Positions 2,933-53,700 of a stretch of 64,000 nucleotides of DNA are shown piece by piece (position 1 is the stretch's first letter; every line of letters starts with the position of its first letter). A program made the position numbers and the translations under genes. The DNA lies in the IMG/VR virus record IMGVR_UViG_3300045988_005351, positions 1-64,000 of that record, one strand, 5' to 3'. The notes beneath the pieces are model-generated. The model worked only from the letters and a program-made list of their open reading frames with translations, had not been told where the DNA came from and did not search any database. This stretch comes from a virus.

Positions 2933-4351
2933 ATGTGTTCTAAATTAAATCCAAGATTAAAGCCTGCACCTAAGTTTGAGGACACTCAACTGGCAGGTGG
3001 TTATGGTGCATTAGCTGCTAGACAATCCAATGTAGCATTGCTTAGAAGAGCAGTGCTGGCTAATCTCCTTTGGGAAGATGTAGCATACATGGATGGTGAG
3101 AAAGTAGCCAATGAGATTAAGAGGTTAATACCTCTGTGTCCTGCTGAGGATGTATATAACATAGCTCTTGAAGCTAGGTTAATGCAGAAACTGAGACATA
3201 CTCCATTGTTTATAGCAGTGGAAATGTGCAAGTACCCTGAACATAAGTTATTTGTTAAGGACTTGTTACCAAAGATAATCACAAGAGCTGATATGCTCAC
3301 TGACTTCTTGGCTATATATTGGAAGGGCAAGAAATGCCCTATCTGTAACCAAGCTAAGAAAGGTCTGGCTTTAGCCTTCCACAACTTCAATGAGTATAAG
3401 TTGGCTAAGTATGACAGAGATGCTGCTATCAAGCTCAGAGATGTGATGTTCTTGGTACATGCCAAGCCTAGAAATCAGTATGAGCAGGAGTTGTTCAATA
3501 AGGTAGCTGAGAGAACTCTCACACCACCTGAGACATGGGAAGTCATGTTATCTAGAGGTGAGGATAAGAAAGCTACTTGGACTAAGCTCATTACAGAAGG
3601 TAAGATAGGAGGATTAGCTATGTTGAGGAATATAGCTAATATGCAGAAAGCTAATGTGGATAGAAAGACTATTCAAGATGGTCTTAAGACACTGAGAAGC
3701 TCAATGCTGTTACCTCTTGACTTCTGGAAGGCTGCTAGGATGAACTCAGTATTTGAGAGAGACATTGAGGATGCTATGATTGAGGCATATAAGAACTTAC
3801 CTAAACTTCCTGGTAAGACACTGTTTATAGTGGATGTATCAGGTTCTATGGGTTCTTTAACCTCTGGTAGTTCTCAGTTCAATAGAATGGACCAAGCCTG
3901 TGCTATGGCTATCTTGGCAGCTAATCAGTGTGAGGACTATGAGCTTGTAGCCACAGCAGGTAATGATGGTTCAAGAAGGAATGCCTCAGAGTGGATTGAA
4001 TATCCCAAGAGAGGTTTTGCTCTTGCTCCACAGATAATGGAGACCAGACATAGGATTGGTGGTGGAGGTATATTCACCAGACAGTGCCTAGAATGGTGTA
4101 AGAATAAGTTCAAAGACAAGAAGTTTGATAGAATTATTATATTCTCAGACTCTCAAGACTGTGACTATCCTGAGAAGATAGTACCTAAACCATTTGGTAC
4201 ATATAACTACATTGTAGATGTATCTGCCCATACAAGAGGAGTGAACTACAAGGGTGTATGGACTGCTGAAGTGAGTGGTTGGAGCGAGAGCTTTATAACA
4301 TTTATAGCTGCTTTAGAAGGTTTGGAAAACAAATTTGATGAAGATGCTTAA
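2933..4351 (+). CDS. rsr: Ro60/Rsr-like RNA-binding protein (TROVE domain + vWA domain)
   Basis: KYDRDAAIKLRDVMFLVHAKP and GGLAMLRNIANM align by eye with the Ro60 blocks [21 protein letters not shown] and LTALLRNLGKM. A C-terminal vWA MIDAS motif follows (FIVDVSGSMGS). Confidence 0.75.
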   Translation: MCSKLNPRLKPAPKFEDTQLAGGYGALAARQSNVALLRRAVLANLLWEDVAYMDGEKVANEIKRLIPLCPAEDVYNIALEARLMQKLRHTPLFIAVEMCKYPEHKLFVKDLLPKIITRADMLTDFLAIYWKGKKCPICNQAKKGLALAFHNFNEYKLAKYDRDAAIKLRDVMFLVHAKPRNQYEQELFNKVAERTLTPPETWEVMLSRGEDKKATWTKLITEGKIGGLAMLRNIANMQKANVDRKTIQDGLKTLRSSMLLPLDFWKAARMNSVFERDIEDAMIEAYKNLPKLPGKTLFIVDVSGSMGSLTSGSSQFNRMDQACAMAILAANQCEDYELVATAGNDGSRRNASEWIEYPKRGFALAPQIMETRHRIGGGGIFTRQCLEWCKNKFKDKKFDRIIIFSDSQDCDYPEKIVPKPFGTYNYIVDVSAHTRGVNYKGVWTAEVSGWSESFITFIAALEGLENKFDEDA

Positions 4352-5112: not shown

Positions 5113-5240
5113 GGGGGAGTAGCTAAATTGGTTACAATACTCTAGCTGTTATTCTCTGGAAGCAGTAGTGTTAGCAAAGAGTTACTTCAAGCATTCATCT
5201 GATAAATGAAAGTATATTGGTTCGAGTCCAATCTCCCCCA
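5113..5240 (+). tRNA. tRNA-Ile (GAU) with a ~54-nt insertion (about 5135-5188) in the D loop
   Basis: Acceptor gggggag/ctccccc. D-stem strands gcta (5122-5125) and aagc (5189-5192) are separated by the insertion. Anticodon arm ttcat-ctGATaa-atgaa, variable agtat, T arm attgg-ttcgagt-ccaat. Confidence 0.6.
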
Positions 5241-5464
5241 CAAGATAGAGATTAGTGAATGTTACAGTTACTTCATATTATGACTAGTATATTTGTTTAA
5301 CATTCAATCAAGAAAGGAGTAGATTTATTTACAACTTTTCAATTCAACCAACTGTGGCAGAGTTGTTCTACCTCTATTAAGAGGGCTGTGGTAGCAATAC
5401 TATAGTCCTCTTTCTTTTTGATAACTGTGTTAGCTACATATATTGTATTACTAAAAGAAAAAGT

Positions 5465-5860
5465 ATGACAAAGACAAAGGAAAGTGTCGAGAGAGTCGAG
5501 GACTTGAAGGCACAAGTGAAAGACCTTCTTGGTGTAGATGCCATGATGGATGAAGATGTGACTAAGGACATGAAGGAAACCCTTATCACTCAAGCTAAGA
5601 ACAATGGTGAGGAACACATCGAAGAGGTGATTGACACCATTGAGAAAGCACTTGAGAAGATTAAGGACCCTGAGTTCAAGGCTATCATCGCTTCTATCAT
5701 CTGGACTAAGTGTCCTATGGGTATGCAGGAGTCCTGCATTGAACTCCACAACAAGATACTATGTGCTGCAATGGCTGCTCATATGCAGAAGCACACTGAG
5801 GGCAATCCCCTTGTAGGTCTTGCACTGCTGGCAGCTACATTGAAAAACAAACTGCAATGA
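5465..5860 (+). CDS. hypothetical acidic protein (131 aa)
   Basis: ATG ORF, plausible composition, coupled to the next gene (ATGA overlap at 5857). Confidence 0.55.
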   Translation: MTKTKESVERVEDLKAQVKDLLGVDAMMDEDVTKDMKETLITQAKNNGEEHIEEVIDTIEKALEKIKDPEFKAIIASIIWTKCPMGMQESCIELHNKILCAAMAAHMQKHTEGNPLVGLALLAATLKNKLQ

Positions 5861-6228
5861 GTGAAATCAAGGTGAGTGTCAGTATTACACTACAAGGTGG
5901 TGTGATGCTGACCCAAGCTGAGGCTGAACAGCTTGAGAAGAACAAAGTAGGCACTGGCTATGACCTGACTAGAATCAAGGTTGAGAACAAGAAAGGTAAT
6001 GCTGATGTCATCAACGTGAGGACTAGGAAGTTCAGAACTGCCACACAGACCATAAGCATGTGCAAAGAGGCTTATGAGTACATGACAAGCAAGGATAGCT
6101 GTCCTCCCAGCATCAAACAGTTTGTATGGGCTAAGATGAAGCCTGTACAGAGACTGGAGGCACATCTGGACTTGGTGTGCAAGCACCTCAAAGGCATCTC
6201 CTATACCTATAAGGTATTTGATGATTGA
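5857..6228 (+). CDS. hypothetical protein (123 aa)
   Basis: ATG ORF overlapping the upstream stop. Confidence 0.55.
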   Translation: MSEIKVSVSITLQGGVMLTQAEAEQLEKNKVGTGYDLTRIKVENKKGNADVINVRTRKFRTATQTISMCKEAYEYMTSKDSCPPSIKQFVWAKMKPVQRLEAHLDLVCKHLKGISYTYKVFDD

Positions 6229-6259
6229 GTAATAACAACATCACTTATACTGTAGAAGT

Positions 6260-6448
6260 ATGGAGTTTCTTGTGGTATTAGTGTCCTTATTGGGAGTTAT
6301 ACTCCTGATAAGGACATTTACTAGGTATGACCCTAATCTTGACTTGGTACAGTCAGGTAGAAAGTACATACTGTTCCTGTGGTACAACAAGTACAACTGG
6401 AGTGGTGAGTATGAGGGCAGAAGGTACATTAAACTGTTTGAGATATGA
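6260..6448 (+). CDS. small membrane protein (62 aa)
   Basis: N-terminal hydrophobic helix MEFLVVLVSLLGVILLI; ATGA coupling to the next ORF. Confidence 0.45.
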   Translation: MEFLVVLVSLLGVILLIRTFTRYDPNLDLVQSGRKYILFLWYNKYNWSGEYEGRRYIKLFEI

Positions 6449-7164
6449 TAGAGTTTGGACTTAAAAGAGCCAGAAATGGTAAGAAATCAAGATTTCTCAA
6501 GAAGTTCCCTCGTAAGAGAATACTCAATAGAGGGGATGAGAAGACTGCCTTTTGGTTCAGAAGCAATTGGATAGATGATAACTACAGGTACTTCAAGGGT
6601 AACTTGGACAAGTTCCTTAAGTCCAATGTAGGTAGACCAGTTGATAAGGTATTCTCAGAGTTCCTTGATAGGTGTAATAAATCTGCCAAGGTATATAATT
6701 TGAGGAAGAGGTTCTATGATATGTTTGAGGAGAAGTCAGAGATTGGCTGGTCAGGTGGTTTCTACATCACCAATGGCATATTGAACTACAAGAAGAGAAC
6801 CAAGAAACTTAAGTCCAAGCCTTACATTAGCATAGGTGACTATAACAGACAGATAATGCCTGATATAGTTACTCTGTGCAAACAATGTGAGTCAAGTCAT
6901 CTCAAGCAACCTGTTGGAGAGTTCAAGCTTACCTATAAGGTCCAGAAGAGAGTTTACTTAGTAGAGAGGGAGATATGGTTAAATGACCTAAAGCTTCAAG
7001 CACACTATAGGTTATGCTCTATTTATGGAGTAGGTAAGGGAGTATCTAAAAGTATATGGGACTCTCAAGACAAGATGTACAAGGCTACCTATGAGCTATG
7101 GGATGATTGGAGCTGGTCTGAACCATCTGAGTTTGTATTTATTACCAAGATTGGGAAGATATGA
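6445..7164 (+). CDS. hypothetical protein (239 aa)
   Basis: Long ATG ORF in the gene train; no motif recognised. Confidence 0.6.
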   Translation: MIEFGLKRARNGKKSRFLKKFPRKRILNRGDEKTAFWFRSNWIDDNYRYFKGNLDKFLKSNVGRPVDKVFSEFLDRCNKSAKVYNLRKRFYDMFEEKSEIGWSGGFYITNGILNYKKRTKKLKSKPYISIGDYNRQIMPDIVTLCKQCESSHLKQPVGEFKLTYKVQKRVYLVEREIWLNDLKLQAHYRLCSIYGVGKGVSKSIWDSQDKMYKATYELWDDWSWSEPSEFVFITKIGKI

Positions 7165-7361
7165 AGAAAGGTCTTACAGTAGTAATATTGTTCATAATGT
7201 GTATGGCTATACTGACAGGTTGCCTCAACCTAATATCAGCACCCAACACTACAGAGAACATATTGGGAGTAGTGATACTGGCTGTCACTATGATAACAAC
7301 AGTAAATCTAATCAAGAGTCAAGTTCAAAAAGATGACAGAAGAGAAGATAAAGCAGGGTGA
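7161..7361 (+). CDS. small membrane protein (66 aa)
   Basis: Two hydrophobic helices (VVILFIMCMAILTGC, VVILAVTMITTV); ATGA overlap. Confidence 0.45.
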   Translation: MKKGLTVVILFIMCMAILTGCLNLISAPNTTENILGVVILAVTMITTVNLIKSQVQKDDRREDKAG

Positions 7362-7566
7362 GGAGTTGCTCAAGAAGTTGAACCATCTCAAAGACCAGAA
7401 GAGGAGATGGGAAAGAGCAGTTGGCTTTTCTAGACCTGAGGTCAAGGACAGTCATGGATATGATGGTAGGGGCAATACCTACAGTATAGATGACTCCTTT
7501 ATCAACTTTGATGAGGTAAAGCTACTCGCCATAGCTAAGATTGACAGAAGAATTGATGAGCTGTAA
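7333..7566 (+). CDS. hypothetical coiled-coil protein (77 aa)
   Basis: ATG ORF with a charged heptad-like N-terminus. Confidence 0.4.
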   Translation: MTEEKIKQGEELLKKLNHLKDQKRRWERAVGFSRPEVKDSHGYDGRGNTYSIDDSFINFDEVKLLAIAKIDRRIDEL

Positions 7567-7598
7567 GTGTTTAACAAACTTAATAATTGAAAGGAGAC

Positions 7599-8384
7599 AT
7601 GAGAAGTAAGATTATGGACTTTATGTTAGCCCTGTTTGCAGTGTTCTCCATGACATCATGTATGGAGAAAGTGGATGCTGGTTGTGAAGGCATCAAGGTG
7701 AACTTGTATGGTAGTGACAAGGGAGTAGATGATGCTTCCTTGGTAACTGGTATTGTATGGTACAATCCTTGGACCACTACAGTATATGAGTACCCTACCT
7801 ATGTACAGACTATTGACTATGAGCCATTTACAATCAATGCTAAGGATGGTTCAGAGTTCACTGTAGACCCTACTATATCATTGAAGATTATTGATGGTAA
7901 ATCACCTGCTGTCTTCAAGAAATACAGGAAAGAGTTGAATGAGGTAATCAAGGGTACTCTGTATAACTATGTGAAGGATGCCTTTAGAATCCAGTTGAAT
8001 AAGTTCACCACTGATGATATTGTAAGTAAGAGGGATAGTATTGAAAATGCCATTGAGAGATACTTGACCCAAGCACTTGCCAAAGAGAGCTTCCAACTAG
8101 AACAACTCACTTCTGGACTTAAATATCCTCAAACCATTGTAGAGTCTGTGAATGCCAAGAACAAGGCTATTCAACAAGCTATGCAAGTAGAGAATGAGGT
8201 AAAAGTAGCAGAAGCTCAAGCAAAGAAACTCATTGTAGCTGCTGAGGCAGAGAAGAAAGCCAATGAATTAAGGCAACAGGCCCTCACTCCAGCTATTCTT
8301 GAGAAGATGTGGATTGAGAAATGGGATGGCAAACTCCCTGTGTATGGTCAAGTACCTACAATCTTTAAGGACATTAGCAAATGA
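7599..8384 (+). CDS. SPFH/band-7 (prohibitin-like) domain lipoprotein
   Basis: ATG at 7599 preceded by aaggag (the ORF-track start 7587 is TTG). Signal peptide ending FSMTSC. SPFH-like core plus an Ala/Glu-rich coiled coil (VKVAEAQAKKLIVAAEAEKKANEL). Confidence 0.6.
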   Translation: MRSKIMDFMLALFAVFSMTSCMEKVDAGCEGIKVNLYGSDKGVDDASLVTGIVWYNPWTTTVYEYPTYVQTIDYEPFTINAKDGSEFTVDPTISLKIIDGKSPAVFKKYRKELNEVIKGTLYNYVKDAFRIQLNKFTTDDIVSKRDSIENAIERYLTQALAKESFQLEQLTSGLKYPQTIVESVNAKNKAIQQAMQVENEVKVAEAQAKKLIVAAEAEKKANELRQQALTPAILEKMWIEKWDGKLPVYGQVPTIFKDISK

Positions 8385-8707
8385 GTTGGGTAATATCAAG
8401 GATAGTGTTCCTCTTAATAACCATCTGGATGTTAAGGGGAACCACCTTTGCCTCCTATACTGGGAGGCATAAGGAGGATGAGTTCAATATGACGTTATGG
8501 GTATTGCTCATCATGTATCTGCTCTTCTTGATACCTTACTGTGGAGTATTGTTCTTCATTGCATGGGTTGTATGGTTCTGTATATGGTCTTTTGCCAAAC
8601 CTCATGGTAGTTACAATAAGTATGTACTTATTACCCTATCAGAGAAGAACAGGCTACATAAGGTGTTTAGAGCTATTTATAACTTCGTAACAAAGCAGAT
8701 AAAATGA
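8381..8707 (+). CDS. multi-pass membrane protein (108 aa), holin-like
   Basis: About three hydrophobic helices; ATGA coupling on both sides, between the SPFH gene and the glycosidase gene. Confidence 0.45.
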   Translation: MSWVISRIVFLLITIWMLRGTTFASYTGRHKEDEFNMTLWVLLIMYLLFLIPYCGVLFFIAWVVWFCIWSFAKPHGSYNKYVLITLSEKNRLHKVFRAIYNFVTKQIK

Positions 8708-9189
8708 GAAATAAGTTATCCATCCTTATAAGTGTAGTCTACTATCTTGGGGTACTGGTATGGTTATCAGTTCTTACCCACAAGGTAAATGACTTGAGCA
8801 AACCACCCAGTATTGAGTTTGAGTTGAAGCTCAATGACTCAGAGTTTATGAAAGACTGGGATGCTAGTGACAGCACTATGCTCAGAGCTTGTGAGTACTA
8901 TGGTGTCAAGCACCCTAGGATAGTCACAGCTCAAGCCATACTTGAGTCTGGTAATTTCAAGTCTGAGTTATTTAGGAAGTATAACAATCCCTTTGGTCTC
9001 TACAATAGTAAGAAGAAGGATTACTTCAAGTTCAAGCATTGGACAGATGCAATAGTAGCCTATATCTCTATGGTAGAGTACAAGTATAAGGGAGGAGACT
9101 ATTACAGGTTTCTTGAAAGGCTTCCTTATGCAGGTGATAAGAGATACATATATAAAGTAAAAGCAATAGAAAGTAATTTACCCCTGTAG
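8704..9189 (+). CDS. GH73-type N-acetylglucosaminidase (endolysin candidate) with N-terminal membrane anchor
   Basis: TAQAILESGNFKSELFRKYNNPFGL matches the glucosaminidase (FlgJ/LytD) catalytic block; N-terminal helix LSILISVVYYLGVLVWLSVL. Confidence 0.65.
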   Translation: MRNKLSILISVVYYLGVLVWLSVLTHKVNDLSKPPSIEFELKLNDSEFMKDWDASDSTMLRACEYYGVKHPRIVTAQAILESGNFKSELFRKYNNPFGLYNSKKKDYFKFKHWTDAIVAYISMVEYKYKGGDYYRFLERLPYAGDKRYIYKVKAIESNLPL

Positions 9190-16900: not shown

Positions 16901-17587
16901 ATGGAAACTCGTAAAGTAACTATCATCAATTCCAAGACCCAGAGCCAGAAGGTAATTCAGGACTCTAAGGCTACAACTCTCGGTGAACTCAAACAGGAAA
17001 TGAGGGAGAGAGATATTGACTACACAGGCATGACTTTCTTTGAAGGTCACATGAGAGCTGAACTCAAGGATGATGCAGCCCCTCTGCCTACCAACATCCC
17101 CTATAAGGGTCAGGTAGTCAATGACTTGATATTCATGTTGACTGCACCTGAGAAGAAGGTTAAGTCTGGTGCTATGTCAAGAGCAGAAGCCTATGCAGAA
17201 ATCAAGAAGAGAGGCTTGCAGGGTGCTTATGTGGATAAGTTCGGTAAGAACTTCACACAGTGTTCCACTGCTGACCTCATCTCTCTGATTGAGGAGAACT
17301 CTACCAAGGCAGCTCCTGCACCTAAAGCTGAGAAGCCTGTAGAAGTAGCAGCTCCTACTGCTCCTGCAAAGGCAGAGGAAGCTCCTGTAGCACCTGAAAC
17401 TCCTGCCACTGAATGTAACTGTTCAAAGGCTCTTGCTATCCTCACAGAGGCTCTCTATGGGAATGACACCATTGAGGAGGAGACCTATGATGCAGTCATG
17501 GCTACTCTCAAAGGTGGTTCTTACAATGCACCTGAGAAGATGAGCAAGAGGGAGATTGATGAGATGTTTGGCTTTGTTGAAAGATAA
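16901..17587 (+). CDS. protein with ubiquitin-like (beta-grasp) N-terminus, HeH/SAP-like motif and Pro/Ala linker
   Basis: Residues 5-88 follow the ubiquitin secondary-structure pattern (VTIINS / SQKVIQD / TLGELKQEMRERDID / MTFFEG / RAELKDD / DLIFMLTAPEKKVKSG). CSTADLISLIEEN is HeH-like. A PAPKAEKPVEVAAPTAPAKAEEAPVAPE linker follows. Confidence 0.55.
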   Translation: METRKVTIINSKTQSQKVIQDSKATTLGELKQEMRERDIDYTGMTFFEGHMRAELKDDAAPLPTNIPYKGQVVNDLIFMLTAPEKKVKSGAMSRAEAYAEIKKRGLQGAYVDKFGKNFTQCSTADLISLIEENSTKAAPAPKAEKPVEVAAPTAPAKAEEAPVAPETPATECNCSKALAILTEALYGNDTIEEETYDAVMATLKGGSYNAPEKMSKREIDEMFGFVER

Positions 17588-17606
17588 GGTCAGATTGAAC
17601 AACACA

Positions 17607-17649
17607 GGTGGAGGGTGAGTAGTATGCTTGCCCTTCACCTTTTTTTTTA
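17607..17649 (+). terminator. rho-independent terminator
   Basis: 9-bp stem ggtggaggg/cccttcacc (one G-U), 15-nt loop, followed by a run of about 9 T. Confidence 0.7.
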
Positions 17650-17657
17650 TACACAGT

Positions 17658-18974
17658 ATGAGTGAAGAAGTAACTAATAAGGTAAGGGAGTTATATGACG
17701 ACATCATGTACTTCCCTAATAAGGTTCTTAGCATATTCAATGACTTCTTTGGAGAACAGAGAGTGGATATGCAGGGATTCTGGGGCTTTGATGAGTTCCT
17801 ACGTTCAATGTCTGAGAACAGGCTTAGTTCTTTCTTCTCCAGTAAGAGTGCTGTACTTGGTAGTCCAGAGTTCAGAAGTGCCAGTAAAGAGAATAAGGCT
17901 GTCATAGAAGATATGCTTGATAATGGTGCTTTGGATAGTGCTGTAACCAGTGATGAAGCACTTGCTACATACTTCTTACCTATAATGTTTACTGCTGTAA
18001 TGCAGATTATGCCACAAGGTTTCATTCTTGTACATTTCCCTCGTGTAAGGGTTACTAATGAGAATGACAGGTTTGTGGATATAAACCATCTATGGGTTAA
18101 AGTAGGTATAAAGGCAAGTGGTGCAGGCATAGGTTACTTTACTGTAAATAGGAGTGAGTATGAACTCTCTCATATGAAGGCAGACTATATGCACAGTCAT
18201 GTACCAGGAATACCATTTGATAGGTTTACAGAGTTCAAGTCTCCCTGTCTTGGCAGTGGACCTATCAGAAGTACAGTAGCTACTCTTGCAGTGAGGTATG
18301 ATGAGGCTATATGGCAGTTGTTCTGTCTTGAGTTGGATAAGTATGTCAGGGTTGAAAGTATCTCTGGAGTACCTTACAGGTATCTGGAGAGGATAGGTAC
18401 AGGTGGTGGTACAACCAATGGAGAAACTGACTTCTCTATGCAGTCTACCACATTCAATGACTACAATACTATATTCTCTAAAGAGGATATGAAGGACTTT
18501 GTAAGGCATCTGATAAGAGACAAGAAACTCAAGTTCAACTTCATCAGAGGAAGCTATGGCTTTGCAATGTCCTATCTTGACTATAGAATACTCATTAGTA
18601 ATGAGTTCATCAAGTGGTACAATCTGAGATATAACTTAGGAACTTCTGCTGCAAGTTATAATGACTTGATGGGTAGAGGAATACTGAAAGAATGTATCAT
18701 CAACAATGGTAAGATACAGTATCTCAACAGCAATGCGAGAAGGAATGGTAGGGACTATTATAGCTATGAAGGAGCTAATGTATGTACATTCAAGGGTAAT
18801 CCTATCAATATACATATAGTAGACAGTGCTACTGATACCCTTAACAAGACAGTGTTAGTCAATGCAGGTATTGCTGAGGAAATAGCAAAGGCAGTACTTA
18901 CAATAGTAAATTACAAGTATGGGAGAGAACAAAGAGAAGAAGCTGGAATTAGTACACCAGCAATCTATCTATAA
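17658..18974 (+). CDS. putative E2-like (UBC-fold) protein, 438 aa
   Basis: ATG at 17658 (the ORF-track TTG start 17628 lies inside the terminator). A beta-rich core is followed by YMHSHV-x13-SPCLGSG, resembling the HPN...Cys layout of E2/prokaryotic E2-like families. Weakest call of the cassette. Confidence 0.4.
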   Translation: MSEEVTNKVRELYDDIMYFPNKVLSIFNDFFGEQRVDMQGFWGFDEFLRSMSENRLSSFFSSKSAVLGSPEFRSASKENKAVIEDMLDNGALDSAVTSDEALATYFLPIMFTAVMQIMPQGFILVHFPRVRVTNENDRFVDINHLWVKVGIKASGAGIGYFTVNRSEYELSHMKADYMHSHVPGIPFDRFTEFKSPCLGSGPIRSTVATLAVRYDEAIWQLFCLELDKYVRVESISGVPYRYLERIGTGGGTTNGETDFSMQSTTFNDYNTIFSKEDMKDFVRHLIRDKKLKFNFIRGSYGFAMSYLDYRILISNEFIKWYNLRYNLGTSAASYNDLMGRGILKECIINNGKIQYLNSNARRNGRDYYSYEGANVCTFKGNPINIHIVDSATDTLNKTVLVNAGIAEEIAKAVLTIVNYKYGREQREEAGISTPAIYL

Positions 18975-18975
18975 G

Positions 18976-20130
18976 ATGGTAATCCCTCAGGAAGTTGAGA
19001 AGAAGATAAGACTTCTGTGTAGGGAGATACACAATGTGGAATGGTCTGGAGTACTGTTCTACAAGGTAAGTGGTTCATTTGAGGATAAATCTTTGACAAT
19101 CACTTGTGTAGACTTGTTCCAGATGGATGAAGGTACTGGAGGATATACTGAATATGATATGTCTCCAGATGTCATGGGTTATATGGTAGACCATTCTGAG
19201 CTGCTTGATACAGGTGTATATCAGGGACTTATCCATAGTCATAACAACATGGCTACATTCTTTAGTGGTACTGATACAGCCACCTTGCAGTCAGAAGGCA
19301 GTGATATGAACCACTTTGTATCACTGATTGTAAACAATGCTGGTAAATACACAGCAGGAGTAACTAGGAAGGCTAAGCTCAAACAGACAGTCAATGAGGA
19401 GTTCACATATCCCACATGGGGTGATGAGAGGGTATCTGGCAATAGAACCTTTACAGTAGAGAAGGAGTATATCCAATGGTTTAACCTTGACATTGAAATT
19501 GAAGGAGTTAGTAATGACTTTGAAACGGAAATGCTTGAAAGGATTAAGGCTATTAGAGCTAGCAAAGCTAATGCTAATAAGGGGAATATTGAGAATGTCA
19601 GAAGTCCTTACTATAGTGGAGGTTATAAGAAAGAGGACTATGGCAAATACCCAATAGGTTCTTATGGTAGTCCTAAAGGGTATACAGTACCTGCTGGTCC
19701 AGCCAATACTACTCCTATCAAGAGAGAGGTCAAGCAACCTACACTCTTTGATGATGCCAATGAGGAGTTTATGATTGACTATGAGAAGTTAAAGCTCAGT
19801 GATGAGATAGTGGACTGGGTGGTTAAGCAGACCATCACTTGTAGTGTAATCATTCCTAACTCCAGTAACATTGATGTAGAGAAATGGGCTAGGTCTATGG
19901 ACTCTCTGTATAAGAAGAGATTCGCAGACAAGAAGGAGTTTGAAGCCTTTGCATCAAACTTTGTGGACTTTGTGGTTAACTATACAGAAGACCCAGAGGC
20001 TGCTGCTTTCTTGGATGCTACGGAGATGGCTGCTGTATTGGCTTATCAGGTAAGAGAGAAACTAAGTACCCTGCCTAAGAATGAATGGCTGGATGCTTGG
20101 ATAGAATTGTATGATGATTATATACTGTAA
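18976..20130 (+). CDS. JAB/MPN (JAMM) metalloisopeptidase domain protein
   Basis: NVEWSG glutamate plus HSHNNMATFFSGTD (HxHx7Sx2D) at nt 19234-19275. The ATG at 18976 lies 1 nt after the upstream stop. Confidence 0.75.
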   Translation: MVIPQEVEKKIRLLCREIHNVEWSGVLFYKVSGSFEDKSLTITCVDLFQMDEGTGGYTEYDMSPDVMGYMVDHSELLDTGVYQGLIHSHNNMATFFSGTDTATLQSEGSDMNHFVSLIVNNAGKYTAGVTRKAKLKQTVNEEFTYPTWGDERVSGNRTFTVEKEYIQWFNLDIEIEGVSNDFETEMLERIKAIRASKANANKGNIENVRSPYYSGGYKKEDYGKYPIGSYGSPKGYTVPAGPANTTPIKREVKQPTLFDDANEEFMIDYEKLKLSDEIVDWVVKQTITCSVIIPNSSNIDVEKWARSMDSLYKKRFADKKEFEAFASNFVDFVVNYTEDPEAAAFLDATEMAAVLAYQVREKLSTLPKNEWLDAWIELYDDYIL

Positions 20131-20132
20131 GT

Positions 20133-21041
20133 ATGGAAGATATAGTAAGTGAAATAACTGCTCAGGCTCTTAACCAGTTAGCTGAACGTAGGGCAGGGCA
20201 GTCTAGTCAAGAGTTTGAAAGAGCTATAGAGGCGGTTCAGTTGAGTCCAGAAGAGGAAGCAATGTTAGGAGCAGTATTGGAGAGTGAGCATCAAGAGATA
20301 CCAGTAAACTCACAGACTATCACTGTAGATGAGACTACAAGTAGGTTCAGTGGGGCTATATGGTATGAGGAAATACAGAAGCAGACTGTCACTTTGGCAG
20401 GTGTTGGAGGTATTGGCAGTTATGTAGGTTTCTTGTTAGGTAGATTGAAGCCTCAGAGACTTATCATATATGACCCTGACAGGGTTGAGACTGTCAATAT
20501 GTCAGGTCAGTTGTATGGTCAGACAGATGTTGGTAATTATAAGAGTGTAGCCCTTGCCAATATGGTCAGGAACTATGCTAACTATAACAATATAGTGGCA
20601 TTGAATAACAGGTTTGAGGCTAACTCTGAGGCTACTGACATTATGATATGTGGCTTTGACAATATGACAGCCAGAAGGACATTCTATGAGAAGTGGAAGC
20701 AGAAGGTACTGTCCTATCCTGCTGGTAGTGATAACAGGAAGAAGTGTTTGTTCATAGATGGAAGATTGGCAGCAGAAGAGTTCCAAGTACTGTCCATTCA
20801 AGGAGATGATGAAAGAGCTATGGTGGAGTATGAGGATAAGTGGCTGTTCAGTGATGCAGAAGCTGAGGAGACTATATGCTCCTATAAGCAGACTACTTTC
20901 ATGGCTAACATGATTGCATCAGTGATGGTCAATGTCTTTGTGAACTTCGTAGCTAACCAGTGTGGTCCTATCATAGACAGGGATGTTCCTTTCTTCATAT
21001 CCTATGATGCAAGTACAATGTTTACTAAAGTTGAAATGTAA
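20133..21041 (+). CDS. ThiF/MoeB/E1-like adenylyltransferase
   Basis: LAGVGGIGSYVGFLLG Rossmann loop followed by IIYDPDRVETVNMSGQLY, as in E1-like enzymes. Confidence 0.75.
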   Translation: MEDIVSEITAQALNQLAERRAGQSSQEFERAIEAVQLSPEEEAMLGAVLESEHQEIPVNSQTITVDETTSRFSGAIWYEEIQKQTVTLAGVGGIGSYVGFLLGRLKPQRLIIYDPDRVETVNMSGQLYGQTDVGNYKSVALANMVRNYANYNNIVALNNRFEANSEATDIMICGFDNMTARRTFYEKWKQKVLSYPAGSDNRKKCLFIDGRLAAEEFQVLSIQGDDERAMVEYEDKWLFSDAEAEETICSYKQTTFMANMIASVMVNVFVNFVANQCGPIIDRDVPFFISYDASTMFTKVEM

Positions 21042-21841
21042 TGCAAAGAGTGAGTAGTAGAATGAGTTATACTATTGAGCATATGTATAACTCAAGGGGA
21101 GATATAACTTCCTGTAGCAGTACAGATGCTAGACTAGTCAATTACTCTATGCACACTGTGTTCCCATCATTCTTTAGGATTTCCCTACAGGAAAACAAGA
21201 TTGAGCTTCCTATATTTGCCAAGGAGTATGTGCAAGGCAAGCTCCTTGAAAGATTGGAAGATAGGTCAAACCCTATGAGAAGAAGTGACATTATTATACA
21301 CTTCCACACTGTAGAGAGTAACTATGCTCCCTATAGGACAGCAGATACTTTAATCAGGAATCTGGTGGAGTTCAACTCCAGTAGAAGAGGTATGTATCTA
21401 ACTGCCAGTACCAATAAAGGAGAGACATATCATGGATGTAATGGTACTATATTCAATAAGGATATGGTTCCACTTATTTTCAATGTCATAGAATGTGAGA
21501 TTGTGGATAATGCTCTTGTATATAAGAGAGTCAAGAGTTATATACATCCATCGGTATTCTATTCTGATGGTACTGTGGAGAAGTGCATAGCCAATAAGAT
21601 TATTCCATTTGTCATGCAGAATGGTATAGAGATAAAACCCTATGACTCAAGGGTAGTTGATAACATCAGCTATGTAGGTACAGGAAGAATCAGGAAGACT
21701 ATACCAGAGTTGTCAGTTGCCAATATAGCTGACAGGTTCTTCTGTAAACCTGTTCTTCCTAGTGTGGCATATAGTGATGATGACATCAATGATATGCTGA
21801 ACAGGAACATTGATGATGTATTCAATATCATTGGGTTATGA
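21041..21841 (+). CDS. hypothetical protein (266 aa), fourth gene of the E2/JAB/E1 cassette
   Basis: Start overlaps the E1-like stop (taATG); ATGA overlap with the UDG gene; no motif recognised. Confidence 0.55.
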   Translation: MQRVSSRMSYTIEHMYNSRGDITSCSSTDARLVNYSMHTVFPSFFRISLQENKIELPIFAKEYVQGKLLERLEDRSNPMRRSDIIIHFHTVESNYAPYRTADTLIRNLVEFNSSRRGMYLTASTNKGETYHGCNGTIFNKDMVPLIFNVIECEIVDNALVYKRVKSYIHPSVFYSDGTVEKCIANKIIPFVMQNGIEIKPYDSRVVDNISYVGTGRIRKTIPELSVANIADRFFCKPVLPSVAYSDDDINDMLNRNIDDVFNIIGL

Positions 21842-22548
21842 CACTTGAGGAATACTTTGGTGATTGGCTTAGAGTGATTGACAGAGCAGAGTTAGATAAG
21901 GTATTGACACTCCTTAACAGGATGTATAGGGTAAAACCTATATGTCCTGCACAGGAGAATGTATTCAAGGCATTCAACTTGTGTAAGTACCGTGACTGTA
22001 AGGTGGTATTCATAGGTCAAGACCCATACCCTCAGAAGGGTGTGGCTACTGGCATATTGTTTGGTAATGATGCAAGTACTAGAGAGGATGACTGGTCTCC
22101 TTCATTAAAAATTGTTAGAGATTCAGTTATAGACTTGCGCAGACCACATAATTTGATTACCTTTGTCCCCACCTTAGAGTCATGGGCTAAGCAAGGCATC
22201 CTTATGATTAACTCTGCTTTGACCGTGGAGATGAATAAGGTAGGCTCACACACTATGTTGTGGAGACCTTTCATCTCAAAGCTGCTAAAGAAGATGTCTG
22301 AGTATGATACTGGTATGATATATGTGCTGTTTGGTGGTACCGCCCGTACCTTCAAACCATATATAGGAAAGTATAATGATGTGATAGAGATAGAGCATCC
22401 TGCATACTTTGCAAGAATCAACCAAGACATGCCCTCAGATGTATTCTATGAGATTAACAAACTATTAAAAGCAAGGTATAACACCACTATTAAATGGTAT
22501 GATGAGGAACAGTGCAATGGAGATATGGAAGAGTATAACAGGCTATGA
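21838..22548 (+). CDS. ung: uracil-DNA glycosylase (family 1)
   Basis: VVFIGQDPYPQKGVATGILFG catalytic motif and an EHPAY block corresponding to the HPSP loop. Confidence 0.8.
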   Translation: MTLEEYFGDWLRVIDRAELDKVLTLLNRMYRVKPICPAQENVFKAFNLCKYRDCKVVFIGQDPYPQKGVATGILFGNDASTREDDWSPSLKIVRDSVIDLRRPHNLITFVPTLESWAKQGILMINSALTVEMNKVGSHTMLWRPFISKLLKKMSEYDTGMIYVLFGGTARTFKPYIGKYNDVIEIEHPAYFARINQDMPSDVFYEINKLLKARYNTTIKWYDEEQCNGDMEEYNRL

Positions 22549-22714
22549 TAACTTATATATATATATAGTTAGAGATATTAGTGGGGAGATTATAGCGGAG
22601 TATTCTTCAATATCCCAAGCATCTATTGCTCTTAATATGGACAAGAGCAATATATCAAAATGCTGTAGAGGTGTTATGTGTTCCTATAAAAGTTTAACAT
22701 TTTCCTATAAATAG
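22517..22714 (+). pseudogene. decayed homing-endonuclease remnant (NUMOD4 start fused to C-terminal HTH, no nuclease core)
   Basis: MEIWKSITGYDN... then (TA)7 at 22554-22567, then ...SISQASIALNMDKSNISKCCRG....YKSLTFSY. This keeps only the two DNA-binding ends of an HNH/GIY-type endonuclease. Confidence 0.45.
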
Positions 22715-49800: not shown

Positions 49801-50725
49801 TACTAGTGCAGGAGACCACTACACTCAAATGAGGACTGGTCTAGCTTTGGCTATGAGGTTGAAGCTACAGGACAAAGATGGTAAACCTATAAGTCTTTAT
49901 GATGCTCTTGAAGTGAAGTATCTTGATGAGGCTCATCCTGAGTATGGAGCTAACCTAGTAATTAAGGAAGGAGTTACTGACCAAGATGGTAAAGCTGTGG
50001 ATAACAAGTACTTCACTGGTGTCACTAAGAAGATAAGGGGTATCAACAACAAGCTGTATGGTATCTATAACCAAGAGGATAAGAATGCTATGCAGTCCAG
50101 AGCAGTAGGTAGATTGCTTATGATGTATAGGAACTGGATGAGACCCCTATGGTTGAAGAGATATGGAGTTGAAAGGTATAACTACGACACTGGTACTTTC
50201 GAGGAGGGCTACTACAGAACCTTATGGAACTTTATGAATACTCTTAGAAAGGACTTGAAGAAAGGTGAACTTGATATAGTGAAGCAATGGCACAATCTTG
50301 ATGATGCTCAAAAGAGCAACATATATAGAGGTCTTGCTGAGATAGCTACATTCTTATCTCTTATGGGTATTATTGCAACACTCAAGGGTACACCAGATGA
50401 TGATGAGAAGGATGACTGGTTGACTGAGTATATTACTTATTCAATCATCAGGTTGAAAGCTGACTTAGGTTCTCTAATGCCTGGTCCTACTATGCTTGAT
50501 GAAGGTCTAAGGTTGTTTGACAATCCATTTGCAGCAGTAAGGGTTCTAAAGAACTCAAGACAGTTGCTTAACTTGTTTGACCCTGATACTTGGACTACTG
50601 AGATAGACCAAGGTATCTATAAGGGATATACTCAAGCAGAGAAGATAATGTTACAACCTGTACCATTTATCAGACAATTCCAGAACTTGTTTGACCCAGA
50701 GGAGCCAACAAGGTGGTATAAATAA
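46796..50725 (+). CDS. large virion-associated protein (1309 aa), function unknown
   Basis: Overlaps the RNAP stop (alternative ATG 46808); coiled-coil-rich; hydrophobic segment IATFLSLMGIIATL near the C-terminus. Confidence 0.65.
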   Translation: MSIKMSTSCVLHPRLSNGEKSPLFSRLKNFLGDRKLAENVYYKAINPAFRETFPNVRFDHNGEPLLEDLITQCGIGYNKDSESMLDFLNSEYGTKSVPKTIQSVIELQNRAASFNINNPLNKRYSAEITSSGHDVSMEIVTATGNERDLGRQQKFNAELNNQLVKLLNSWGADVAALTELEEASNVNGVMDLSAGINAATGLKEVIRIAKGERGQVALAEEWGHFVVDAVKDSPLRDRMLNSLKNEEVLQRVLGSEYNRYNEVYNGDIDLMAKEALGKMMAQVLNNYDATAPNDRLFERYKKNVLDFFGKRDTDEIDEIINKVREQVYEFTTNVFNGKYQLDISSRDYNRRLFNLGNDVSRDYNILKRIIQQEKKRLAIYGKGAKATAREREEKKGSFDEKQKLFIDKLSNDLENHRELEGIYTYLTEAVRMLRQLSDRLDAVHNSQTSWKDKFSALRSIRDYMSSYGSIMEELRQEMYKAKQEGDMRFKEKLQESLDEFSGLLARLGSDWAEVSKDEFARFLAPFEGEGISMSIRGERKQYNIRELLDYIEKDISIVERWTDAMADSTDPILRIYDSLVKDQKNKARYNTINNEKEILMHSKKLEDAGIKNTDFMYEKTSDGKITGNFVTRYNWGDYFAALSKYAKSLPQDMGREEKSILISRWKRANTDKKGNPIEKYYNPQYDAIQRNAAMKEYYDFMINLKRNLDYRLPARYVRFNKAPQIRRDFLERVMGKGNKFQYLWESFKDNLVRREDDTEFTYARQDFEGNQIYNLPIYYTRPLKDKNDLSTDCTSTMIAYAAMANDYAAMNDVIDALETGRTILSERRVAQTRGGKIMREVLNKIPSNLTKKGDVANFMGRLNDFMLMQVYGEQMKDEGTVLGVDVGKAVNMLNKLQSYGTTALSVLTGTANLAQNIVISNIESISGQFFNKSELAKADWEYTKLLPQYLSEIGNRIQTSKMALFAEKFNVLQDYKQHVRGVDWDRKTWFSRFFKEDTLWFTTSAGDHYTQMRTGLALAMRLKLQDKDGKPISLYDALEVKYLDEAHPEYGANLVIKEGVTDQDGKAVDNKYFTGVTKKIRGINNKLYGIYNQEDKNAMQSRAVGRLLMMYRNWMRPLWLKRYGVERYNYDTGTFEEGYYRTLWNFMNTLRKDLKKGELDIVKQWHNLDDAQKSNIYRGLAEIATFLSLMGIIATLKGTPDDDEKDDWLTEYITYSIIRLKADLGSLMPGPTMLDEGLRLFDNPFAAVRVLKNSRQLLNLFDPDTWTTEIDQGIYKGYTQAEKIMLQPVPFIRQFQNLFDPEEPTRWYK

Positions 50726-50778: not shown

Positions 50779-53700
50779 TTACTTGCAAGCTGGTATGAAT
50801 GATTCCCTTGTCAAGGGGTCAGCACCATCCCAGAACTTCTGCATATCTTCTTCACTTAGTCCATCAAGAGCCACATAACTTTTCTCATCTGCTGTAAGTT
50901 CGTTCCACTTCTTATGTGAAAAGAGACTCCTCTCCATAGAGGTGCTTGGCTTATCTGATGTAACTTTCTTATCTTTCTCTCTCCTGTCTATTGATGCTTG
51001 TCTTGGGTCTGGTACACCATCAGGGTTTCTTAAGTTGTTGAAGATTTCAAAAGTCTTCCTCATTTCAGGAGTCACTTTCTTATCTTTTTTCTTTTCTGGC
51101 TCTTCTTTAAGCTCTATTGAAGTACCATAAGGGCTATTCTCCAATGGTGTAGAACTCATAGCATCCTGTATAACAGCAGCTACATTATCAGCTTGTATGA
51201 AGTCCATGATGTTGTTTCTAGTCCTTCCTGCCTCATCAGATACTAATGATGGGTCTATTGTCAATGACCTGCCATTAGGTAGTACCAACTTATAACCATC
51301 ACCTACCTTAGCTAAGTAGAATGTCTGACCATTCTTAGTGGTGAACAGTACCTGCATATCTGTCTGATGGTACTCTGGCTTTCCCTTACCCATAGTAACA
51401 TACTGACCCTTTACAGTTCTAAGTGATGTTGGTGACTGACTTGCTGGTACTTCATCAGTTCTCTCAAATACACCACTCTGATATGTCAAAGGTACATAGT
51501 TCTCTGGGGATATCCTAGCTATTCCTCCATCCTTCTCTCTACTATATCTGAGTTGGAATGGTACTATAACTAGATTAGATACTGGAACACCAAAGCTATC
51601 CTCAAACAACTTAGCATAGGCACTCAACTGTAGAGTATATTGGTCTTTGTTACTTCTAGTAAAGTATCTAGGATTCTCAACTCTTGAGAAACCAGAGTCC
51701 TTAGTGGAGTACTTACTAGTCTTGAAGTCAAAGATACTTATCTCACCTGTGCTAGGATTATAAGCAAACACATCAAGCTCTCCTGCTATTCTTCTACCAT
51801 CAGAGTACTTATGGAATACCACAGTTCTATCAGTAACCAACTTGAGACCTCTTCTATTTGCATCATCCCTGAACTTGCCTAATCCTCTCTTCAAAGCACC
51901 AAAGGCTTCATCAGACATACCCTCAGGCTTAGTTACATTAGTAGGGTCAATCAAGAATTGTCTTGCTACTTCATCTACTAGAGAGCCTCTACTTGTAGCA
52001 GCATCTCCTCTGCTTGGTCCTATATAGTTAGAACCTATTACAGAGTGTACTCTTTGATACTCATGGTATTGACCATCTTCCTCCTTAATCATGTAAGAAC
52101 CATTGGAGGTGTCTGGATTACCATTGTCATCTCTAAGCACAAGCTTCTGAGAGTCTTGAAGGGATTTTACAGCAGTGGCTGATTGAGATGCCTTACTCTT
52201 TCTACCATCAAGAGTAGCTTCTAACTCCTCAACCTCTTTAGGAGACAGGTACTTGTTAGTAGCTCTATTATAGCCTCTCTTACCATTCCTATCTACGATG
52301 AGTACTTTACCATCATGTTGATTAACACCAAAGTAGTTAGTACCATAAGCAGAATTTATATAAGCAAGGTCTTTGATTTGTTGGGCATCCTCCCCTATGT
52401 CTACTATAGAACCAGACTGGTCAAATATATAACCATTCCTTACAAAGTATTCCTTACCACCATACTGTACTCTAGTACCTCCTTTGGCTTGCTGTGATGC
52501 CTTAGCTCTCTCAAATGCACTATTAGTATGAGTGGTGTTAGGTTTCTCATTCAATAAGAACCAGGTTCCCTGCATTCTCTTACCAGTAAGATAAGTAGCA
52601 AGTACATTACTATCCCTTAATCTATTAGCATACTCTTGACCTTTCTTGCCAGTGAGCTTCTTAGCATCAACATTAAAGGCAAGGTTAGCTTCATAGAAGG
52701 CATCAAGCACTTGGTTATATACCTCCTCTACAGGTGCTGTATAAGGTTCAGATGCTTGTGTAGTACCAGCTCCTATATTAAGAAGTGACTTCTTTGCAAA
52801 CCTCTTTAACAGTATATTCCTGTTCTGTCTCTTACCATCCCTATTAGCAAAAGCTATCTGTAATGATACATCATTAGCTCTGCTTATTATATTGATGTGG
52901 AAACTATCTGGTATATATAGTAACTCTATCAAGTCCATATATACATTGTCAAGAGCCTCATCAAATCCCTTCTCAAGGTTAGCTATACCAGCTAAGTCAT
53001 TAAAGGCTTTCTTCAAGTCATTAGCTATAGGATTATCCTGTGTAGATAGGTCAAACTCAGTCTTATTCAGGTGTCTTATATAGACCTTCTTAGGACTAAG
53101 AGTACCTTTACTGTTAGGTAGAAGTATATATACCTTACCGTCAGAGTTAGCCTCATCGAACACTGGCTCTACAAAGGTATCTGTATTAGCTTCCATAGAC
53201 CTGTTCTTCATAACACCTATAGTAGCATTATCAGTACCTAGCAGGTCTCCTACTGATTGAGTCTTACTCATATCATAGCCATACTGACCATTCATTATCT
53301 TAGATACTCTTACAGTAGGTTGTTCACCCTTCTTAGCCTTATTCTTTATTTCCTTTACTCCCTCAATAGCCTCATCAGTGTTCATATAGTTCACTAATGT
53401 GCCTTTATGGTAGAGTGCCAGTAACTCAGGATGTTCATCTGTAGCAGGCTCATATCTTACCTCAAGCTCATCACCTTCCTTTATATTACCCTCATTAACA
53501 TAGTCAAAGGCATTCTTACCAGTCTTAGGGTCTACTTCCTTTAACTTGTTATATACATAAGAGTAGCCTTGATTCCTGTCATCACCAACAAAGTCAATCA
53601 ATACTCCATCCCTCTTTGCATCCAAGTCAAACTGTGGTATGACTGCCTTAAGAACTCCTGTTACTGCTGTAGGTTTATACTTACTTACCTCAGCCTCAGC

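Follow-up and report, generated by a model that had tools for sequence, protein, structure and literature searches.

The viral DNA analysed here, referred to as the window throughout, is a stretch of 64,000 nucleotides (positions 1 to 64,000 of the IMG/VR virus record IMGVR_UViG_3300045988_005351). On its plus strand lies a cassette of genes reminiscent of ubiquitin conjugation systems, which a first-pass annotation, made from the sequence alone, had described as four tightly coupled genes for an E2-like protein, a JAB isopeptidase, an E1-like (ThiF) enzyme and a fourth protein of no recognised family. Open reading frame (ORF) calls and direct reading of the sequence bear out these genes, here termed genes 1 to 4, with their coordinates and junctions: the TAA of gene 1 (18972–18974) is followed by the ATG of gene 2 at 18976, the TAA of gene 2 (20128–20130) by the ATG of gene 3 at 20133, and the TAA of gene 3 (21039–21041) overlaps the ATG of gene 4 at 21041 in the sequence TAATG. 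Coupling reaches beyond the four genes, as the TGA of gene 4 overlaps the start codon of a gene for uracil-DNA glycosylase (UDG) at 21838 (ATGA). The cassette consists of five genes rather than four, because the gene immediately upstream, g0, which codes for a protein predicted to be ubiquitin-like (Ubl), also belongs to it (Table 1).

Table 1. Features of the five-gene cassette and their positions in the window.
Feature	Position	Strand	Description
g0	16901–17587	+	228 aa, homologue of crAss001 gp79; predicted Ubl precursor/fusion protein
Beta-grasp (ubiquitin-like) domain of g0	16901–17170	+	Residues 1–90, end K-V-K-S-G90
C-terminal part of g0	17171–17587	+	Three-helix module (94–134), disordered Ala/Pro/Glu/Lys linker, helical region, tail …EIDEMFGF
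Terminator/attenuator-like hairpin	17606–17649	+	16-bp GC-rich stem and T9 run, between g0 and gene 1
Gene 1	17658–18974	+	438 aa, homologue of crAss001 gp78; ORF call
Gene 2	18976–20130 as called (384 aa); likely 18919–20130 (403 aa)	+	Homologue of crAss001 gp77
JAMM zinc-site motif in gene 2	19234–19275	+	HSHNNMATFFSGTD; HxHx7Sx2D
Gene 3	20133–21041	+	302 aa, homologue of crAss001 gp76; predicted minimal E1-like adenylating enzyme
Gene 4	21041–21841	+	266 aa, homologue of crAss001 gp75; cassette-linked

A megablast search of the cassette region against GenBank phages returned no nucleotide-level match at all, and relatives therefore had to be sought at the protein level. The gene 3 protein is 65–70% identical to its homologues in Bacteroides phage crAss001 (gp76), the PhiCrAssBcn isolates, Kehishuvirus ‘tikkala’ and bajarodcaudo virus 1; identity falls to 52% for DAC15 and to 36% for Flavobacterium phage FpV4. 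On the basis of these protein identities and the absence of a nucleotide match among GenBank phages, we assign the window to an undescribed crAss001-like (Steigviridae-type) phage. Labels already present in GenBank are ‘thiamine biosynthesis protein’ or ‘ThiF’ for crAss001 gp76, ‘metalloprotease’ for gp77 and ‘E1 enzyme family protein’ for the gene 3 homologue of bajarodcaudo virus 1. In the literature on crAss-like phages combined with ThiF, JAB or ubiquitin, for which coverage of subscription journals was thin and an earlier mention is possible, we found no description of the cassette, its Ubl or its conservation.

The organization of the cassette was followed across relatives by two independent retrievals. 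Searching with the E1 protein yielded 84 loci (crAss001, bajarodcaudo virus, DAC15, FpV4 and 80 IMG/VR contigs), all of which exhibit the order primase–g0–gene 1–JAB–E1, with gene 4 and the UDG gene coming next in nearly all of them. A gene 1 profile retrieved 80 loci, and the five genes follow one another from g0 to gene 4 in every one of the 76 that have enough flanking DNA. The order Ubl–gene 1–JAB–E1 is kept in about 160 phage loci, always between the primase gene and genes for recombination or polymerase, and the placement of the cassette within the replication module of a crAss001-like phage proved correct. FpV4 retains g0, gene 1, JAB and E1 at 23–39% identity. The same Ubl–gene 1–JAB–E1 block is present at positions 5232–8714 of a 373-kb contig (DASYBV010000020.1, L094) from a metagenome-assembled genome (MAG) of Puia sp., where it sits between genes for DnaB/RecT/primase and for GIY-YIG/PD-(D/E)XK exonuclease/PolA. 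This contig, from a soil Chitinophagaceae MAG, exceeds a crAss-like genome by far; it may represent a prophage or a jumbo phage, or may have been mis-assembled. Because order and position are kept across the 84 and 76 loci, in FpV4 and in the Puia sp. contig, we conclude that the cassette is an old, fixed part of the replication module and not a mobile accessory island.

A contig scan for relatives of the E1 in cells returned nothing but MAG-binned crAss-like contigs and the one phage-type Puia sp. contig, and no cellular ancestor emerged. The MAGs in which the cassette-bearing crAss-like contigs (L087–L093) had been placed carry the labels Bacilli, Spirochaetia, Acholeplasmatales and Clostridium; these labels almost certainly reflect phage contamination of the bins.

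A Ubl-like protein upstream of the four genes had been mentioned in passing in the first-pass annotation; this assumption is substantiated by structure prediction, and the protein provides the strongest of the new evidence. Full-length g0 as a query found no homologue below 87% identity, a set of no use for modelling; searching was instead done with a profile of diverse Ubl domains, and 83 diverse sequences underlie the AlphaFold2 model. In this model, residues 1–82 have predicted local distance difference test scores (pLDDT) of 92–95 and follow the order beta-beta-alpha-beta-beta…beta. They are followed by a flexible tail (residues 83–93), the three-helix module (pLDDT ~84) and the disordered linker; residues 137–172 have pLDDT values below 50, and the C-terminal helices are predicted with low confidence. 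The leading Foldseek matches of the Ubl domain in the PDB all possess the ubiquitin superfold (Dvl DIX, UBX, SUMO1, ubiquitin, ISG15 and a ubiquitin-like protein of B. fragilis), with modest E-values of 3e-3 to 1.6e-2, probabilities of ~1.0 and template modelling (TM) scores of 0.5–0.69. As g0 has no match in Pfam, it represents a new Ubl family at the sequence level.

The Ubl domain of g0 terminates with a near-invariant K-K-[IV]-[KR]-S-G, with SG at the aligned position in 78 of the 83 homologues. The residues past the Gly are non-conserved, and their number ranges from 1 to 146 and is never zero. Merely one or two residues (IC, KF, KC, KI, N, K, I or DK) follow the Gly in 20 homologues, and many homologues are stand-alone Ubl forms of 89–92 residues. 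Nature has also cut the gene at this very site: in L022 (cr106_1) and in the IMG/VR contig L009, an ORF that looks like an HNH/NUMOD-type homing endonuclease is inserted exactly after …KSG-KF (L022:3083–3598; L009:3532–3996), and g0 is split into a Ubl of 91–92 residues, which terminates with …KSGKF, and a separate ORF of 130–135 residues that begins at residues aligned to Ala91-Met-Ser-Arg. In L010, the split is retained without the endonuclease. A conserved Gly with an obligatory but arbitrary extension is, judged from these sequences, the signature of a Ubl precursor, and synthesis of g0 as a precursor with an extension would explain why a JAB peptidase is always present. There is precedent for both types of extension: BilA (Gly97-Ala98) is trimmed by BilC, which exemplifies pre-processing of a short-tailed Ubl by a JAB protein (PMC10557695), and BubCD uses its JAB domain to cleave the BubAB fusion past Gly229 (PMC11601596).

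The C-terminal tail of g0 (window positions 17510–17587) is conserved and acidic-aromatic (S-x-x-E-I-D/N-x-M-F-x-F) and recalls the protein-recruiting C-terminal tips of single-stranded-DNA-binding proteins. Judged by this resemblance, the part of g0 outside the Ubl may serve as a replisome adaptor.

The hairpin between g0 and gene 1 has a minimum free energy of −24.5 kcal/mol (z = −5.2), and the ATG of gene 1 lies just 8 nt past its T-run. A strong hairpin with a T-run is found in 42 of 48 distinct g0–gene 1 spacers, that of FpV4 included, with stem sequences that vary by clade. The six exceptions are short spacers ending partway through the stem sequence and are attributed to gene 1 starts called too far upstream. 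We infer that the hairpin is a terminator or attenuator that sets a high Ubl:enzyme ratio, i.e., that it would yield more Ubl than enzymes.

The start of gene 2 is most likely the ATG at 18919, as homologues share the additional N-terminal peptide encoded from there (…LELVHQQSIYK); gene 2 would then overlap the last 56 nt of gene 1. The JAMM motif reported earlier for this gene is intact and translates to HSHNNMATFFSGTD, and the full signature E…HxHx7Sx2D is invariant in 19–35 diverse homologues (E41, H106, H108, S116 and D119 in the numbering of the 403-residue protein). The closest solved relatives, all weak, are P. furiosus JAMM1 (profile, E = 0.034), CSN5 and Rpn11, which are Ubl-specific isopeptidases, and the alignment to Rpn11/PSMD14 covers the JAMM motif. 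A JAB/MPN+ domain takes up approximately the first 150 residues of the protein and is joined through a low-complexity linker to a conserved helical domain at the C-terminus.

Assignment of gene 3 as ThiF/E1-like is confirmed by a Pfam match to PF00899 (61.7 bits at a cut-off of 28.1, E = 7e-17). GxGGxG, DxD, K137, FDNMxAR, R71 and Cys249 (within ‘C-S-Y-K-Q-T-T’) are invariant in 19 homologues down to 36% identity, FpV4 included. With the family profile, UBA5 comes first in the PDB (2e-10), ahead of MccB (1e-8), ThiF (4e-5) and Cap2 (3.5e-4), and TcdA, PaaA, UBA6, NAE (UBA3) and UBA1/7 are further matches; these alignments covered residues 68–181 only. Cys249 (C-S-Y-K-Q-T-T-F-M) may lie at the site of the catalytic Cys250 of UBA5 (C-A-A-S-L-P-T-T-M) and may be equivalent to Cys184 of ThiF. 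The 302 residues comprise one adenylation domain without an inserted Cys domain, a CxxC zinc site or a rhodanese domain, and the N-terminal extension varies in length. Gene 3 is, by these sequence features, a minimal UBA5/ThiF-like E1 with an invariant, putative crossover-loop cysteine. The claim of a JAB isopeptidase-type peptidase accompanied by an E1-like enzyme holds: both are real, are strictly co-inherited and, judged by their residues, look active.

Gene 4 follows the E1 gene in 83 of the 84 loci retrieved via E1 and in all 76 retrieved via gene 1. It is the least conserved, fast-evolving member of the cassette, with 22–28% identity between clades and few invariant residues (P57, Y130, G132, G135, K181 and P189), and it is not detectable in FpV4 or L094. 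In agreement with its previous description as a protein without a recognised family, it has no match in Pfam or the PDB.

The family of gene 1 is large, with 2326 clusters at 50% identity, 842 of which have E ≤ 1e-30. In 62 members of 32–46% identity, N134, E135, Y177, H179, S180, H181, F193, C197, G199, G201, P202, E225, E233 and S234 are invariant. The first-pass annotation had pointed to a beta-rich core followed by H-S-H…C and had taken this arrangement, as its weakest call, as that of an E2. The observations themselves stand: the His and Cys codons are where they had been placed (nt 18186–18263 translate to YMHSHVPGIPFDRFTEFKSPCLGSGP), and a model with a pLDDT of 84 has strands at residues 121–169, a loop with H179, H181 and C197 and helices at 202–229. 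The order of elements in residues 100–229, i.e., helix, four strands, the loop with H-S-H and Cys197 and two helices, is compatible with the UBC (ubiquitin-conjugating) fold. The spacing of 16–18 residues from His to Cys and its context are unlike the HPN-x8-C of E2 enzymes.

No comparison lent significant support to the E2 assignment itself. Foldseek returned nothing below E = 0.8 from the PDB, where UFC1 was the sole E2 among the matches and scored at chance level (E 3–6, TM 0.23–0.27), and only uncharacterised crAss-like orthologues from BFVD. Pfam gave no significant match for the single sequence and, for the 62 members, no recurrent match and no UQ_con or Prok-E2 match at E ≤ 1; in these members, PADLOC and NCBIfam likewise gave no recurrent match. 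The gene 1 profile retrieved a chance YbbR match alone (E = 0.3) from PDB sequences. For hhalign comparisons, we used as references a genuine CBASS Cap2 and a genuine PRTRC locus, with Prok-E2_D both as a single sequence and as an 11-sequence alignment; the probability was 0.1–0.3% against the E2 domain of Cap2 and against Prok-E2_D, and a PRTRC protein of unknown type likewise gave no significant match. PRTRC protein B of the fetched locus is a Prok-E2_D protein with the canonical active site FPNISSNGQVCLGS. A recurrent, insignificant pairing (0.1–0.3%) lays …IP…F..F..P-C197-L-G-S-G of gene 1 on aP..NV…G.V-C-x-G of Prok-E2_D and thereby sets C197 on the catalytic cysteine, again without significance. 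A metagenome scan for relatives of Prok-E2_D found nothing. Two other candidates were rejected. A divergent JAMM site formed by H-S-H is not followed by S-x2-D, and its histidines lie in coil and not at a strand–helix junction; an Fe-S or PP-loop thiolase would not fit the single invariant cysteine and the absence of an SGGxDS motif. As fold and profile comparisons are without a significant match, E2 function of gene 1 can be put forward only as a hypothesis; from its sequence, we regard it as an orphan-fold, probably catalytic Cys/His protein with obligatory linkage to Ubl, JAB and E1.

The cassette was compared with established Ubl systems, first of all with the Bil and Bub antiphage operons of bacteria (PMC10557695, PMC11601596). 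It had been suggested that the order of the genes mirrors BilA-B-C-D, and indeed it does: in both cases, four separate genes encode a Ubl, a protein with a (here putative) catalytic cysteine, a JAB protein and an E1, and the Ubl carries residues past the reactive Gly for the JAB protein to remove (PMC10557695; removal is a prediction for the phage protein). In contrast to host-encoded Bil, the present genes are phage-encoded and reside in a replication module. Their E1 is a single adenylation domain of 302 residues with the putative crossover-loop cysteine instead of IAD-AAD-CYS, the 438-residue second protein is not recognisably of UBC fold, and the Ubl is a single beta-grasp domain that ends with SG and is usually fused to a C-terminal region of 138 residues. 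The PADLOC Bil models are unmatched save for a weak match to the Rossmann region of BilD (1e-5, ~100 residues).

Type I Bub (6E.1/DUF6527) shares with the cassette a Ubl at the N-terminus of a fusion, from which the Bub JAB domain releases it after a conserved Gly (PMC11601596), a release that we only predict here, and a minimal homodimer-type E1 resembling UBA5 and ThiF (PMC11601596). However, Bub fuses Ubl to E2 and JAB to E1, whereas the Ubl partner here is a small helical/disordered region and JAB and E1 are separate proteins. Bub E1 and E2 are devoid of Cys and act via oxyesters, while the E1 cysteine is invariant in the phage family. Finally, Bub includes the DUF6527 serine protease, and no Pfam match beyond Prok-JAB and ThiF was present in the cassette at E ≤ 0.1, so that DUF6527 went undetected.

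The archaeal SAMP/UbaA/JAMM1 system and TtuB/TtuC of Thermus also combine a Ubl, an E1 of MoeB/ThiF size and a JAMM peptidase and likewise lack a recognisable E2 or E3, and P. furiosus JAMM1 is the closest solved relative of the phage JAB protein. Unlike the phage Ubl, however, SAMP and TtuB end with Gly-Gly and double as sulfur carriers, and these systems are cellular, are not clustered with replication genes and have no equivalents of genes 1 and 4. UFM1, like the phage Ubl, has one Gly at its end with a tail behind it, in this case of two residues. In the UFM1 pathway, UBA5 is the best solved relative of the phage E1 (2e-10) and has its catalytic cysteine in the crossover loop of the adenylation domain (PMC11601596), but this match covers the Rossmann half only, the UFC1 match is insignificant (E ~3, TM 0.27), and there is no evidence for direct descent from this pathway.

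E1-like and JAB proteins are also common to the PRTRC (ParB-related, ThiF-related) cassettes of plasmids and Bacteroidota elements, which contain a Prok_Ub Ubl and a Prok-E2_D E2 as well, and to CBASS Cap2/Cap3. In the case of PRTRC, TIGR03736 (ThiF) is the only model that matches here, with 39.2 bits versus a cut-off of 144.75; the models for proteins A–F, Prok_Ub and Prok-E2_D match no protein of the cassette, and the hhalign probability of gene 1 against PRTRC protein B is 0.1%. Cap2 is an E2–E1 fusion that acts on a CD-NTase, and there is no CD-NTase here. ThiS/ThiF and MoaD/MoeB are characterised by a ThiF or MoeB that scores at equivalog level, by a Ubl with a Gly-Gly end and by nearby sulfur donor and acceptor enzymes. 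None of these turned up in the cassette, nor did a Pfam sweep (25 families listed) of 33 other plus strand proteins of the window, outside the large late genes, detect such donors or acceptors. The general picture is that the cassette works like Bil, type I Bub and SAMP/UbaA/JAMM1 but is a member of none of them, since each known system has a tested defining feature that is missing here. Judged by defining features, the cassette belongs to none of Bil, Bub, Cap2/Cap3 and PRTRC.

From sequence and modelled structure, we arrive at the best-supported proposal, which we consider about as likely as not, that the locus encodes a self-contained, phage-borne pathway for the processing, activation and conjugation of a Ubl within the replication module. 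The g0 protein, with its Ubl fold and Ser-Gly end, would be made as a precursor consisting of the Ubl (residues 1–90, ending with K-x-K/R-S-G90) and an extension. By analogy with BilC/BilA and BubCD/BubAB, the gene 2 JAMM peptidase would cut after Gly90 to free the Ubl and could later reverse conjugates. Gene 3, with the requisite residues in place, would adenylate Gly90 and take over the Ubl onto Cys249 as a thioester. Transfer to protein targets would then occur either via gene 1, with Cys197 and His179/His181 following a four-stranded sheet in an E2-like role, or directly from the E1 in a manner resembling SAMPylation, and the fast-evolving gene 4 product is a candidate specificity factor or substrate. 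Given the constant position of the cassette, with the primase gene on one side and genes for recombination or polymerase on the other, phage or host proteins acting in genome replication are the most likely targets. A more far-reaching version, which we put forward tentatively and hold to be rather unlikely, is that gene 1 founds a new, non-UBC class of Ubl-conjugating proteins that uses Cys197 and His179/His181 to take the Ser-Gly Ubl from the minimal E1 to replisome or host proteins; the pathway would then be a core, vertically inherited part of genome replication in crAss001-like phages and in the Flavobacterium phages related to them.

Several points weigh against a conjugation pathway. 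All of its chemistry is deduced from sequence and predicted structures, and it has no known target. The penultimate residue of the Ubl is Ser and not Gly. In gene 3, the E1 motif N-L-x-R-Q reads N-M-S-G-Q (residues 122–126), the usual Arg being replaced by Gly throughout the family, while the N-terminal Arg71 (TSRFS) is invariant. The match of the single gene 2 sequence to Prok-JAB (E = 1.8e-4, 21.8 bits) stays under the Pfam gathering score of 25, and gene 1 shows no significant fold or profile match to UBC, Prok-E2, Cap2 or BilB. A sulfur-mobilising partner is only partly excluded owing to the scope of the Pfam sweep.

The main rival is a sulfur-carrier system, which we regard as an unlikely explanation: the Ubl, trimmed by the JAMM peptidase and adenylated by the E1, would be converted to a thiocarboxylate via a host persulfide and would pass its sulfur to a substrate handled by gene 1, e.g., a nucleotide, DNA or a tRNA base made during replication. 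The first-pass annotation had favoured a sulfur-carrier or nucleotide-modification pair for the case that gene 1 lacked a UBC-like fold and no Ubl partner existed. Half of that case applies, as a UBC-like fold has not been demonstrated for gene 1, and this absence of a UBC-type E2 is in favour of sulfur transfer, whereas the Ubl partner does exist. The combination of JAB, E1 and a short-tailed Ubl is also the architecture of QbsC/D/E and CysO/Mec+. QbsD trims the two-residue tail of QbsE, and CysO/Mec+ is a comparable pair. The top NCBIfam scores of the E1 are those for ThiF-type sulfur-carrier adenylyltransferases, but at 59 bits they remain far under the equivalog cut-offs of 152–159 bits. 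Neighbouring NrdD, ThyX, dUTPase, UDG and DUF1599 proteins would suit the modification of nucleotides or DNA. On the other hand, the E1 has no fused rhodanese, and neither the cassette nor the 33 proteins of the sweep yielded a rhodanese, cysteine desulfurase, PP-loop, ThiG, MoaE or CysM-like partner; gene 1 has one invariant cysteine and no Fe-S or PP-loop signature; the Ubl ends with Ser-Gly and not with the Gly-Gly typical of sulfur carriers; and the best solved relatives are UBA5 for the E1 and Ubl isopeptidases for the JAB protein.

Equally improbable in our view is E2-independent conjugation of the SAMP/UbaA type, with Ubl, JAB and E1 as the whole pathway and genes 1 and 4 as targets, regulators or co-travelling replication proteins. 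Archaeal SAMPylation requires just an E1 and a JAMM peptidase, and the nearest solved structure for the JAB protein is P. furiosus JAMM1; gene 1 lacks E2 homology and its fold is unmatched in the PDB. This explanation is at odds with the linkage of gene 1 to the cassette, which is as strict as that of the enzymes, with its overlap with the JAB gene and with the invariant Cys and His-x-His in a loop, which look catalytic and not structural.

We consider it quite unlikely that there is no Ubl chemistry at all, i.e., that the beta-grasp domain is a replisome interaction module, the E1-like protein performs adenylation of the MccB, PaaA or TcdA type and the JAB protein is an unrelated peptidase. 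MccB, PaaA and TcdA are indeed among the best solved relatives of the E1, and the C-terminal part of g0 appears to be suited to a replisome adaptor. However, the near-invariant SG exactly at the domain boundary, the obligatory yet non-conserved tails, the many stand-alone versions of 89–92 residues and the clean natural split of the gene at SG are difficult to account for without a use of the Gly carboxylate. Very unlikely, finally, is counter-defence, in which the phage JAB protein would strip host Ubl or cGAS conjugates (Bil, CBASS type II) or the phage Ubl and E1 would jam conjugation as decoys: the characterised bacterial E1/E2/JAB systems are mainly antiphage (PMC10557695, PMC11601596) and the E1 has weak PADLOC matches to Cap2 and BilD, but these matches span the shared Rossmann region only, a deconjugase alone would be sufficient whereas four to five genes have stayed linked through deep divergence and at a constant position of the replication module, and the cassette looks like a core element and not like a variable anti-defence island.

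The remainder of the window is briefly described here. The Pfam sweep identified NrdD and its activase, PolA, ThyX, dUTPase/DCD, an SNF2 helicase and GIY-YIG/NUMOD homing endonucleases. It also revealed a protein with a TROVE (Ro60-like) domain at 2933–4351 (plus strand) and, in the early region up to 38343, proteins with DUF1599 (‘nucleotide modification associated domain 1’), HicA toxin-like and SPFH/Band 7 domains as well as a weak OspG-kinase-like match. Just downstream of the UDG gene, an ORF of 71 residues (22499–22714, plus strand) starts with MMRNSAMEIWKSITGYDNLY, which resembles MEIWKDIVGYEGLY, the N-terminus of the homing endonuclease inserted in g0 of L022; judged by this likeness, the ORF is perhaps what is left of a truncated member of that endonuclease family. 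Near 50.7 kb, the coding strand and the GC and AT skews change sign: plus strand genes stop at 50725, minus strand genes begin at 50779, and the ORFs flanking the switch at ~50700 are very large (2772, 1309 and 2060 residues).

Ubl conjugation in bacteria (Bil, Bub, CBASS Cap2/Cap3) has been demonstrated only recently and mainly as a host weapon against phages. Here, a predicted Ubl precursor, its putative trimming peptidase and an E1 are apparently core components of the replication module in a major lineage of human gut phages and in distant Bacteroidota phages. What appears to be new, as far as sequences and models can tell, is a phage-encoded Ubl pathway embedded in a replication module, in which the Ubl family is new, its precursor is a fusion and the partner enzyme is of an unrecognised kind. 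Conjugation is directly testable, because the K/R-Ser-Gly tail predicts that trypsin would leave a Ser-Gly remnant of +144.05 Da on modified lysines. If the Ubl were a sulfur carrier instead, the cassette would point to a novel thiolation of nucleic acid or nucleotide in these phages. If proteins are conjugated, it would amount to a system for post-translational modification that bacteriophages themselves encode, comprising a new Ubl family and perhaps a new kind of conjugating enzyme, and it would give a function to five ‘hypothetical’ genes (crAss001 gp75–gp79) in cultured, experimentally tractable phages.

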